Shown piece after piece: positions 5,180 to 8,072 of a stretch of 32,285 nucleotides of DNA (positions are counted from its first letter, which is position 1; the number at the start of each line of letters is the position of its first letter). The DNA lies in contig JAYEJE010000200.1 of NCBI GenBank assembly GCA_034660415.1, positions 1 to 32,285 on the forward strand. Reading direction: 5' to 3'. This DNA is from Methanobacteriota archaeon (lineage in GTDB: Archaea > Halobacteriota > Syntropharchaeia > Alkanophagales > Methanospirareceae). Made by a program: the position numbers and the translations under genes. The notes beneath the pieces were generated by a model that was not told the DNA's origin, did no database searches, and saw only the letters and a program-made list of their open reading frames with translations.

Positions 5180-6634
5180 ATGAGTGCGATAAACTTCAGA
5201 GATGCCGTATCGTCGATTTTAGGTAAATTCCCCATGGTTGAACGTCCCGAGTGGCACGTTCATTTTAAAACTAAGTTAGCCTGGACGGTGGGCATACTCG
5301 TTCTCTTTTTTGCCCTTGGTAATATCCCTCTATTTGGGCTATCTCCGGAGTCAATGGATCTTTTCGGGCAATGGCGTGCTATATTCGCAGGAGAGCGATT
5401 CTCGCTAACTGCTCTTGGTATTATGCCGATTGTTGATGCTTCTATTGTCTTACAACTCTTAGTCGGCGCCGGGATAGTAAAGTTGAACTTAAGCGACCCA
5501 AAAGATCAGGCGTTTTATCAGAACATACAGAAACTGCTCGTTTTGGTCTTTGCTGCTTTTATTAGTCTGACGTACGTTGTAGGCTTTTATATGCCGGACC
5601 CGGCAGTAGCAGCGCAGCTTGGCGTATCTCTACGTTTCATTTCTTTCTTACTGTTTATTCAGGTCTTCGTTGGTGGGATGCTGATATACTTCATGGATGA
5701 GGTGGTCTCAAAATGGGGTATAGGATCTGGTGTTTCGCTATTCATCCTCGCAGGTGTCTCGCAGCAGGTAATTACCGGCCTTATAAGTTGGATTCCTGAT
5801 CAAAGCGGATGGGCTGTGGGCGTAATACCAAGATGGATAGAAATAGTGCAGCAAGTACCGGGGTACGAGATACTGGAAGGCGGAATAACTTTCCTCTTCC
5901 AAAATCACATGATAGCGCTTATATCCACTATTGCGGTATTTTTCACCGTTGTTTATCTTGAGAGCACTCGATTAGAGATACCGTTAGCACATGCGGTAGC
6001 AAGAGGTGCACGGGGCAAATTCCCTATTAAGCTGTTGTATGCGAGTGTGCTGCCGATGATTCTTGTAAGAGCGTTACAGGCGACCATACAGGGTTTTGGA
6101 AGAATGCTTTATTCTCAGGGAATTACTATTTTTGGGACGTTTGAAGGGAACAATGCGGTTTCAGGCTTGATGTATTATCTTAGCCCAATATATAGCCCCT
6201 GGGATTGGTACCCTGCACTTGTGCTTCCGGGTATTGAAGGCTGGCAAATTGCCATAAGATTGAGTCTTGACTTTGCTTTTATGATCATAGGAGGCGCGAT
6301 ATTTGCCCTGTTCTGGATAAATACAACAGGAATGGGTGCTAAAGATGTGGCAGCGCAGATACATAACTCAGGGCTACAAATACCCGGGCATCGCAGGACC
6401 GTGGCAACGATAGAACGAATGATGGAGGGCTACATCCCGAAAATAGCGCTAATGGGTGGCGCTATTCTGGGCGTGTTGTGCGTGGTTTCAAGTATGTTCG
6501 GCACACTTGGGCAGGCGTCAGGGACTGGTTTACTTCTGGCGGTGAGCATTGCCTACCGGCTTTATGAAGATGTGGCATCTGAGCAGATGATGGAGATGTA
6601 CCCGACGATGAGGCGATTCTTCGGCGGCGAATGA
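5180..6634 (+). CDS. secY: Preprotein translocase subunit SecY (canonical copy)
   Basis: Archaeal SecY motifs: [90 protein letters not shown]. Confidence 0.97.
   Translation: [484 protein letters not shown]
6104..6259 (+). repeat. 156-bp near-identical tract shared by the two secY genes (partner at 7593-7748)
   Basis: Manual alignment shows 7 mismatches in 156 bp and one amino-acid change (F/Y). Confidence 0.9.
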
Positions 6635-6644
6635 CGAAGATGAA

Positions 6645-8072
6645 ATGAGCGTAAAAGCGGTAGGGGATGCGTTAGCATCTCTTTTAGCTAACATCCCTAT
6701 GGTCGAACGCCCGAAAAGGCATGTTCCACTCAAGACAAAACTAGTATTTACTATCGCTATCCTCGTTCTCTATTTTGCTCTGAGTAATATTCCTCTCTTT
6801 GGATTATCGCCATGTTCGCTGGACCTCTTCGGCAGATGGCAAGCTATCTTCGCAGGTCAAAGATTCTCGCTGACCGCTCTAGGGGTTATGCCAATTATAG
6901 ATGCCGCGATTATCCTGCAGATCTTAGCGGGTCCAAAGATAATGAAACTCGACTTAACAAAGCCAAAGGATAGGGCATTTTATTTGAACATGCAGAAACT
7001 GCTCGTTTTCTGCTTTGCTGTTTTCATAAGCTTTACATATGTTACGGGCTTTTATATGCCCGATCAGGGAATAGCATCACAACTTGGAGTACCATTGCAG
7101 GTTATCTCGTTCTTACTCTTCTTGCAGGTCTTCGTAGTCGGTATGCTGATATACTATATGGATGAGGTGGTATCGCGTTGGGGAATAGGTTCTGGTGTGG
7201 GCCTTTTTATTATTGCAGGCGTTACGCAACAATTAATTTCCGGATTTATATCCTGGGTCCCAGACAGAAGCGGCTTTGCTGTGGGTGTGATTCCAAGAGG
7301 GATAGAAATAGTGCAGCAAGTACCGGCATACGAGATATGGGAAGGTGGAATAGTTTTCCTTTTCCAGCAGCACTTAATAGCGCTTATAACAACTATCGCT
7401 CTCTTCTTCCTCTTGATCTACCTGTGGAGCGCTCGCATAGAGCTAAAAATAGCCAGTTTGTATTCAGGAAGGAAACGCGGTAGGATTAGATTTCCCGTTA
7501 AGTTTGTGCACTTCTCATATGCGATGATTATTCCTGCGGTATTATTGAATTTGGGAGGGCTATTGCTAACGAGCATACAGGGCATTGGTCGGATGCTTTA
7601 TTCTCAGGGTATTACTATTTTTGGGACCTATGAAGGGAACAATGCGGTGTCAGGCTTGATGTATTATCTTAGCCCAATTTATAGCCCCTGGGATTGGTAC
7701 CCTGCACTTGTGCTTCCGGGCATTGAAGGCTGGCAAATTGCGATAAGAGTTGCCGCCGAGATCTCAATAATGGTCGCAGGTGCAATGATAACCGCCCTAT
7801 TATGGCTAAAATTGACGCCTGGATTGGAAAACATGGACATAAGAATAATGATCCGTAAATCAGGTCGTCCAATTTACCGTTATAGTAGGAGTATAAAAGC
7901 GATACGGAGGGCGGTGGATAAGCGCATATTAAAGATTGCAATGCTGGGTTGTGCAGTTTTAGGTGCTTTGATTGTGATTGCGAATATGTTTGGCACTCTT
8001 GGTGGAGTAAGTGCAGCATATCTCATTATGGCTGTGAGCATTGTTTATGGTGTTTATGAAGAGATGATGTGA
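6645..8072 (+). CDS. secY: Second, divergent SecY paralog (tandem duplicate)
   Basis: Colinear with the upstream SecY over its whole length, uninterrupted 475 aa. Cytoplasmic loops 6/7 and 8/9, TM7 and TM10 are diverged and the C-tail is truncated. Confidence 0.9.
   Translation: [475 protein letters not shown]

Follow-up and report, generated by a model that had tools for sequence, protein, structure and literature searches.

Our combined findings suggest that archaea of the ANME-1 group (anaerobic methanotrophic archaea; Methanophagales) possess a second SecY, here called SecY2, which is old, strongly altered in its C-terminal half and retained under selection in some lineages while lost from others. 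With slightly better than even confidence, we read it as an accessory, alternative translocon subunit that would share SecE and Sec61beta with the canonical copy, SecY1, and differ from it in its gate and docking face. The gene lies in a stretch of 32,285 nucleotides (nt; contig JAYEJE010000200.1, hereafter the window) from a metagenome-assembled genome (MAG), G000, of 2.14 Mb in 357 contigs and 92.8% completeness. There it follows secY1 in tandem, and its product belongs to a SecY paralogue clade specific to ANME-1. The locus is composed as follows (TM, transmembrane helix; ORF, open reading frame).

4760 to 5179, + strand: uL15 gene, an ORF with a Pfam Ribosomal_L27A match of 52.5 bits; its stop codon directly adjoins the start of secY1 and is the end of the ribosomal-protein operon.
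5180 to 6634, + strand: secY1, 484 amino acids, canonical SecY; Pfam SecY 224.6 bits.
6086 to 6259, + strand: secY1 side of a tract attributed to gene conversion, encoding the end of TM7 and exoplasmic loop 7/8.
6635 to 6644: spacer from the secY1 stop to the secY2 start, 10 nt, without an oligo-T tract.
6645 to 8072, + strand: secY2, 475 amino acids, member of the ANME-1-specific clade; Pfam SecY 120.5 bits.
7482 to 7604, + strand: codons 280 to 320 of secY2, which encode the return strand of loop 6/7 and the lengthened TM7 (beginning with a string of 23 residues) and hold both clade-specific 3-residue insertions.
7575 to 7748, + strand: secY2 counterpart of the tract at 6086 to 6259.
8079 to 8954, − strand: prs (ribose-phosphate pyrophosphokinase, by Pfam), convergent, bounding the locus.

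The ORF list confirmed what a first-pass annotation of the window had described, namely two colinear secY genes (5180-6634 and 6645-8072) that are 10 nt apart and free of internal stops, and all the peptide strings quoted there are present in the translations. The two proteins are identical at 294 of 474 positions (62%, BLASTP). The match of SecY2 to the SecY profile (PF00344, cut-off 32.2 bits) covers profile positions 1-305 of 306, and both copies pass Plug_translocon (PF10559, cut-off 22.1 bits), with 41.2 bits for the plug (TM2a) domain of SecY2. No third SecY match was found in a profile search of this 92.8%-complete genome.

We considered whether the second gene could be an artefact, either a strain-chimera assembly or a mis-binned contig, given that the source is a MAG of 357 contigs and that Logan unitigs break at the conversion tract. 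The assembly chimera that the first-pass annotation had allowed for was not borne out, since a Logan contig of sequencing run X1 (1305 nt) spans 6311-7615 across the secY1/secY2 junction with 0 differences, with the qualification that X1 is possibly the source sample and its contig not fully independent. A separate study, run X5, likewise yielded contigs over portions of secY2, with 1-14 differences. Moreover, the tandem order, which the annotation had proposed seeking in relatives, recurs in 10 further genomes of the family, including a congener (G006) with a 92% identical SecY2, and each copy matches its own clade over its whole length. The artefact reading is thus refuted for practical purposes.

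The differences between the paralogues are unevenly distributed. In G000, TM1, the plug, TM4 and TM5 are 65-82% identical between the copies, and exoplasmic loops 5/6 and 7/8 reach 80-88%. Loop 6/7 falls to 29% and loop 8/9 to 32%, with TM7-TM10 at 41-50%. The pattern first reported from the window, with high similarity in TM1-TM5 and the exoplasmic loops and low similarity elsewhere, therefore stands, except that the very high similarity of loop 7/8 comes from the conversion tract. The further claim that divergence is confined to the cytoplasmic partner-binding face did not hold, as TM7, TM8, TM9 and TM10 are equally changed. TM7 of SecY2 is 6 residues longer, owing to two insertions. The first (VHF, AHF or MHF) comes after FP[IV]K[FL] at the cytosolic start of the helix and is present in 17 of the 18 SecY2-type rows of our tree and in all 39 database rows of this type; the second (LNL, FNL or FPG) comes after the invariant TM7 proline (16/18 tree rows, 38/39 database rows). 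Three further segments are rewritten in the SecY2 clade: loop 6/7, where E-I-P-L-A-H...A-R-G-A-R-G becomes E-[LI]-K-I-P-G-Y-L-K-R-R..R-G-R; loop 8/9, where Q-I-P-G-[HF]-R-R becomes P-I-Y-G-[HY]-x-R; and TM10, where S-G-T-G-L-L-L becomes V-S-V-L-Y-L-I and the G-T-G motif is gone. The C-tail, a string of 17 residues that is conserved among the other archaeal SecY rows displayed, has been lost, and the alignment rows bear out the first description in this respect. These derived indels and motif changes are shared by all SecY2 members, pseudogene pieces included, and none is found in the SecY1, outgroup or diverse archaeal SecY rows displayed. An apparent 2-residue insertion at TM10, seen in the alignment to Methanocaldococcus jannaschii SecY, was discarded, being absent relative to SecY1.

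We also compared SecY2 with the 65 alignment columns in which at least 80% of 78 other archaeal SecY sequences agree. The clade replaces 17 of these, 5 of the 34 in the N-terminal half, all conservatively, and 12 of the 31 in the C-terminal half, mostly radically. Replaced conserved positions thus lie mostly in the half with the ribosome-docking elements, in agreement with the first-pass annotation. The conserved cytosolic motifs (E-I-P of loop 6/7 and I-P-G-x-R of loop 8/9), the TM10 G-T-G motif and the C-tail are all lacking in SecY2, where K, R, R, Y, V and Y stand in place of P, G, A, P, G and G, respectively, and a gap in place of a tail proline. Loops 6/7 and 8/9 and the C-tail contact the ribosome in solved SecY/Sec61 complexes, and all three are changed clade-wide (EIP to E-[LI]-K, IPG to IYG, tail gone). 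SecY2 could accordingly be imagined as a differently targeted channel that dispenses with the usual ribosome or FtsY docking and exports proteins post-translationally via a cytosolic factor. We hold this to be improbable, given that a candidate motor or extra targeting factor was not found in G000 and that both loops retain their basic residues or have gained more.

Features of the channel itself are retained. Residues aligned to M. jannaschii I75, V79, I170, I174, I260 and L406, which we take to be the pore-ring positions of structure 1RHZ, are V, I, V, I, V and M in SecY2, all hydrophobic, and its plug region is 73-97% identical to that of SecY1 in five genomes. An AlphaFold2 model built on a diverse 103-row alignment has the canonical ten-helix SecY fold (predicted local distance difference test, pLDDT, 88.5; predicted template modelling score 0.87), with a break in the TM7 helix at residues 301-302 and a pLDDT of 74 for residues 291-300; it replaced an unusable model from a shallow SecY2-only alignment (pLDDT 43). 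The best Foldseek matches were M. jannaschii SecY (1RH5, 1RHZ) and Sec61alpha (probability 1.00, template modelling score 0.67-0.80). This retention bears on the idea that SecY2 is an obligate partner of SecY1, a non-conducting subunit with a docking or regulatory role in a hetero-oligomer. The concentration of changes on cytosolic elements would suit such a subunit, as would the tight tandem linkage, often seen where genes encode parts of the same complex (in 10 tandem genomes the called ORFs overlap by up to 14 nt or lie up to 68 nt apart). A non-conducting subunit would, however, not need the plug and hydrophobic pore ring that SecY2 has kept; four genomes carry an intact SecY2 unlinked to secY1; and published work (PMC3432775) concludes that one SecY copy is enough for translocation in bacteria. 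We therefore consider an obligate partner very improbable.

The phylogenetic analysis (IQ-TREE quick search, LG+C20) included 72 rows: 18 SecY2-type sequences, 42 SecY1 sequences of the core genera, and sequences of the single-copy genera g10 and g11 and of the sister family f2. The SecY2-type rows formed one clade with a stem of 0.36 and a support of 100 in the Shimodaira-Hasegawa-like approximate likelihood ratio test, which answers in the affirmative the check proposed earlier, whether copy 2 is a clade of its own. This clade is sister to the 42 core-genus SecY1 rows (support 80); outside both lie g10 and g11 (support 93) and the sister family. SecY2 branches are several times longer than SecY1 branches. 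SecY1 of G000 shares 95-98% identity with SecY1 of G006 and with the only SecY that each of five congeners (G001-G005) has, and SecY1 is 75-84% identical across the core genera of the family. Synonymous divergence (dS) between the paralogues is saturated (1.1-1.6). A duplication at genus level was rejected: forcing the nine SecY rows of the window's genus, a group chosen after the tree was known, into one clade lowered the log-likelihood by 200 (approximately unbiased test, p = 3e-105). SecY2 monophyly is a conservative result, since gene conversion would draw paralogues of the same genome together. As judged from the tree, SecY2 is an old copy and not a recent duplicate, which arose once within the ANME-1 family and predates the divergence of at least nine genera; this dates the duplication to after the split from the sister family and probably to after two basal genera branched off. 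In one genome of basal genus g11 (G017; locus L065, 2579-4180), the single SecY has 533 amino acids and gave two separate segments when matched to SecY2; the gap between them suggests that about 30 residues are inserted around position 335.

Intact SecY2 is under purifying selection, its new loops included. In 12 of 12 orthologous pairs (Nei-Gojobori method), the ratio of nonsynonymous to synonymous rates (dN/dS, omega) was 0.20-0.35 for SecY2 versus 0.05-0.14 for SecY1; between G000 and G006 it was 0.24 (dS 0.16) and 0.11 (dS 0.14), respectively. Per-region omega values for SecY2, summed over five pairs with the topology taken from the model, were 0.32 for loop 6/7, 0.32 for TM7, 0.22 for loop 8/9, 0.10-0.40 for most other parts and 0.69 for the N-terminus. 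The values of 0.22-0.32 indicate that the rewritten cytosolic loops are conserved in their new form, and the earlier view that the gene is not in decay where intact was upheld.

Superimposed on this divergence is an exchange of sequence between the copies. The tracts at 6086-6259 and 7575-7748 are identical at 162 of 174 nt, versus 794 of 1227 (65%) in the rest of the alignment; a recent gene conversion accounts for the very high similarity between the copies in the loop 7/8 block. Within single genomes, short tracts of the paralogues are near-identical against a background of 45-75%, and such conversion tracts occur in at least six genomes. In the best window of 30-40 codons, the synonymous difference was 2.0 in 17 sites for G000 (30 codons; whole gene 0.63), 1.0 in 15.8 for G006, 2.0 in 17.7 for G066, 2.0 in 20.7 for G064 and, in another region (TM1 and plug), 1.0 in 28.2 for G023, compared with whole-gene values of 0.6-0.75 across genomes; these windows are minima picked within the gene, and the figures are descriptive. 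The tracts point to conversion that is occasional and ongoing and re-homogenises short stretches.

We estimated how widely SecY2 is distributed by a profile search of 66 genomes of the family, 65 of which had a SecY1-type match. The secY region was retrieved for 61 (G010, G013, G044, G047 and G048 yielded fragments or no match only), and presence or absence was called by tblastn with the 15 intact SecY2 proteins as queries against these 61 loci. Intact, full-length SecY2 was present in 15 genomes of 6 genera, in tandem downstream of secY1 in 11 (in one of them across a contig break) and elsewhere in 4 (G011, G012, G043, G045). A further 11 genomes carry a disrupted gene, 32 have no trace of it despite at least 1.3 kb assembled downstream of secY1, and 3 are undecidable where contigs end (G046, G054, G070). 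SecY2 is thus absent or broken in 43 of 61 genomes, and found intact or as a remnant in 9 of 14 genera. The disrupted copies are as follows.

G051, 1 stop; G078, 2 stops; G041 and G042, fragments with stops.
G053, G063, G068, G072, G079 and G080, remnants of 30-97 residues directly downstream of secY1.
G019, truncated to about 316 residues, on another contig.

In-frame TAGs in the broken copies were taken as stops and not as pyrrolysine codons, because PylS_Cterm passed its cut-off in 0 of 5 genomes (best 30.9 versus 178 bits), with the Methanosarcina acetivorans control passing. G011 has secY1, a tandem SecY2 broken by 1 stop and an intact SecY2 at another locus, beside an SCP2-domain gene (genes C254, locus L006, 1486-2907, and C255, locus L036, 2790-4229), which gives the impression that a copy moved elsewhere is replacing its tandem counterpart. 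Among viral contigs scanned with the SecY2 alignment, 55 pattern matches were obtained, of which tblastn confirmed none, giving no indication of a virus-borne copy.

Within the window's genus, secY2 is present only in G000 and G006. In G001-G005, secY1 is followed by an intergenic stretch of about 64 nt with an oligo-T tract and then by prs. Strains with and without the gene appear to coexist, in populations polymorphic for it, since one contig from the RNA library of run X16 connects 6646 directly with 7889 and so lacks 6647-7888, most of secY2, and since the genus itself shows differences in presence and a remainder in G007 that reads as a deletion scar. In run X1, a variant departs from the window after the secY1 stop region, with a loose end behind 6624 (6524-6624) at a depth of 35.8 versus about 12. 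In G007 (locus L066, 2716-4195), secY1 is split into ORFs of 346 and 137 amino acids, which may be a frameshift or an assembly error (the MAG has 840 contigs and 6% contamination).

Outside the family, 262 sampled genomes of the phylum had two PF00344 matches in 7 cases, one in 251 and none in 4, in line with the earlier statement that archaea normally carry one secY. The seven are G140, G191, G226, G257 and G313, as well as G131 and G220; in G226 both SecY proteins are full-length with about 230 bits each, unlike the lowered score of SecY2, and other archaeal secY duplications may therefore exist. Public data hold at least 38 clusters of SecY2-type proteins, named, where they are named at all, just "SecY".

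Several of our findings weigh against an accessory translocon with a role of its own. First, SecY2 is dispensable, as follows from its absence or breakage in many congeners and family genomes. The first-pass annotation had listed loss or breakage in close relatives among the observations that would refute its reading, and this is in part what the survey found: no trace in 32 of 61 genomes, breakage in 11 others, absence from 5 of 7 congeners and, in a sixth (G007), only 9 nt (start codon, one codon, stop) at the place of secY2. Second, constraint on SecY2 is 2-5 times weaker than on SecY1, and omega reaches 1.04 in TM8. Third, most SecY2 members retain the conserved arginine that follows the turn of loop 8/9, and loop 6/7 is more basic, so that ribosome binding may be unchanged. 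Fourth, no dedicated partner or motor and no neighbouring client gene was found, and the surroundings of the four unlinked copies, which differ from one another, and of the truncated copy in G019 gave no common partner. In addition, the tree is a quick search that includes long rows (G024, G045), and the confidence of the AlphaFold2 model is lowest at loop 6/7 (61), the TM7 insertion (74) and loop 8/9 (67-70).

The main rival explanation draws on the same findings. SecY2 may be a redundant spare that does the same job as SecY1, for dosage or backup, and drifts slowly to loss while being propped up by conversion. The losses and broken copies, the raised dN/dS, the conversion tracts and the partner or client genes not found would all fit such a spare. 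The age, uniformity and constraint of the derived features fit it less well: the copy is older than at least nine genera and its dS to the paralogue is saturated, yet 15 genomes keep the full frame; its derived features are the same in every member and not random; the rewritten loops are constrained; and residues conserved in at least 80% of archaeal SecY are replaced, which a mere spare would be expected to keep. We thus rate redundancy as unlikely, though the most credible of the alternatives to an accessory translocon subunit.

As to partner genes, G000 has one SecE, encoded between ftsZ and an Spt5-like gene, one Sec61beta, two GTPases of the signal recognition particle type (SRP54 and FtsY) and one DUF106/YidC-like gene. 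A protein search at E-values up to 1 found no second SecE or Sec61beta, with the limit that a divergent paralogue of such short proteins could be missed, and no second SRP54 or FtsY was found in this genome. SecA_DEAD had no match at E up to 0.01 in the 92.8%-complete G000, compared with matches in 12 of 14 control genomes. A predicted complex of SecE with SecY2 gave weak support, scoring 0.56 (best of three controls 0.00), with runs agreeing in at least 94% of contacts and a partner pLDDT of at least 64; a score of 0.60 or less is more often wrong than right unless the complex is likely beforehand, and this one may be a memory of solved SecY-SecE. Among solved complexes, 58 of 80 attained this mark, as did 2 of 110 pairs of mismatched proteins. 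As for the neofunctionalisation first proposed for copy 2, the purifying selection and altered C-terminal half agree with it, while the different partner, heterodimer or substrate class that it named was not found.

RNA-library contigs from two studies lie over secY2, and one bridges from secY1. Those of run X18 are 1519 nt (spanning 6220-7738, with 82 differences) and 475 nt (7709-8183) long, and those of run X16 cover 6577-7003, 7209-7352 and 7365-7538. They are compatible with co-transcription of secY1 and secY2, a further point on which support for the accessory reading is qualified, as the contigs tell neither strand nor expression level, their depths give no ranking of the two genes, and DNA may be present in RNA libraries. 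Retention of SecY2 is independent of the tandem position, since four genomes keep intact unlinked copies, among them loci L052 (G045, 989-4517) and L038 (G043, 1431-4686). One unlinked SecY2 directly follows two siroheme-decarboxylase-like (AhbA/B-type) genes and hemB, and another lies beside a DUF4013 protein with a marginal CcmE-domain match (24.9 bits, cut-off 24.6); together these are a slender indication of a connection with haem or cytochrome biogenesis.

We propose the following scenario for SecY2 as an accessory translocon subunit. The secY gene, lying where the ribosomal-protein operon ends at its 3' side, would have been duplicated in tandem once. One daughter, SecY1, would have stayed canonical, and the other, SecY2, would have gone through a burst of change in which TM7 gained its two 3-residue insertions, while loops 6/7 and 8/9, the beginning of TM10 and the C-tail were rewritten or lost. 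The new form would then have been held by purifying selection. Made together with SecY1, SecY2 would join the sole SecE (Sec61gamma) and Sec61beta to form an additional translocon that is not essential to the cell. In this channel, pore and plug would function normally, and the lateral gate and the docking face for ribosome or receptor would differ, giving a different gating threshold or a distinct client range. An accessory role of this kind would explain why the gene has been deleted or pseudogenised many times, with occasional conversion from the neighbouring copy. A bolder version, which we doubt, would make SecY2 the core of the first dedicated archaeal accessory export pathway, relying on an as yet unnamed factor or a post-translational mode instead of standard ribosome/FtsY docking, with the lengthened gate helix admitting special ANME-1 clients such as extracellular multihaem cytochromes or cell-envelope proteins.

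The remaining neighbours of the locus include, besides uL15 and prs, genes for TBP and a radical-SAM protein. Elsewhere in the window, a 162-amino-acid ORF (2475-2963, + strand) matches bacterial-type RuvC (PF02075, E = 2.5e-42). The Holliday-junction resolvase usually expected in archaea is Hjc, and this ORF may be a horizontal acquisition. Another ORF, of 417 amino acids (10141-11394, + strand), has no Pfam match at E up to 1e-5.

To our knowledge, archaea are generally treated as having a single SecY. Archaeal Sec export lacks SecA and Sec63/BiP, and how it is energised or diversified is an open question. Full-text literature searches found no description of an archaeal SecY paralogue clade, with the reservation that they did not cover the supplements of ANME-1 comparative papers, where a mention is possible. 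"SecY" has 0 occurrences in PMC9012536, PMC9894754 and PMC13385816; "translocase", "translocon" and "Sec61" are absent from PMC9012536 and PMC13385816; and passages of PMC6098224, PMC7997004, PMC8675477 and PMC7987157 contain no mention of archaeal SecY paralogues. Complementation of Escherichia coli secY(ts) has been tested with a Methanococcus SecY, in work cited by PMC6098224. An old, fast-evolving SecY2, kept intact in some lineages and lost in others, hints at a specialised second export route in ANME-1, of a kind not so far described in archaea. ANME-1 are key methane consumers that depend on exported redox proteins, and such a route is testable. Lineages with, without and with a broken second channel amount to a natural, family-wide experiment, the many independent losses, at least 8-10 events, lend comparative power for finding co-lost client genes, and the mapping of SecY1/SecY2 differences to the lateral gate and the ribosome-docking face makes it testable which elements set client choice and docking in channels of the archaeal/eukaryotic type. 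In addition, caution is called for when secY is used as a single-copy marker, as ANME-1 genomes can hold two copies with conversion tracts.

Second SecY proteins are known from other systems, with which SecY2 can be compared. The bacterial accessory Sec system, in which SecA2-SecY2 and Asp proteins export glycosylated serine-rich adhesins, likewise has a second, divergent, non-essential SecY beside the housekeeping one. However, no SecA of any kind was found in G000, no asp, glycosyltransferase or serine-rich substrate genes adjoin secY2, and the ANME-1 protein branches within archaeal ANME-1 SecY, its best solved relatives being archaeal SecY/Sec61. Plastid SCY2, part of a bacterial-type system that includes a second SecA as its partner, is similar in being a lineage-specific second SecY with its own clade, and differs in that no second SecA motor was found in the ANME-1 genome. 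The signal-sequence-suppressor (prlA) mutations of Escherichia coli SecY loosen gating and cluster in TM7, TM10 and the plug. Changes in SecY2 likewise fall in TM7 and TM10, which suggests, by analogy only, that its gating stringency may differ, though they are natural and clade-wide and include insertions, unlike the single substitutions of prlA. Yeast Ssh1 and vertebrate Sec61alpha2 are also archaeo-eukaryotic-type paralogues within the same genome, dispensable and faster-evolving; SecY2 presumably uses the same gamma/SecE subunit, as they do, and the Ssh1-ribosome structure 2ww9 is among its Foldseek matches. Ssh1 has its own beta subunit, Sbh2, whereas the ANME-1 genome has a single Sec61beta and no Sbh2-like paralogue; moreover, SecY2 originated independently, by a duplication within one archaeal family, its gene stands in tandem in an operon, and the protein has TM7 insertions and no C-tail. 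We infer that SecY2 belongs neither to this group nor to the bacterial SecA2/SecY2 family, and that in its manner of working it would most resemble Ssh1 or Sec61alpha2.

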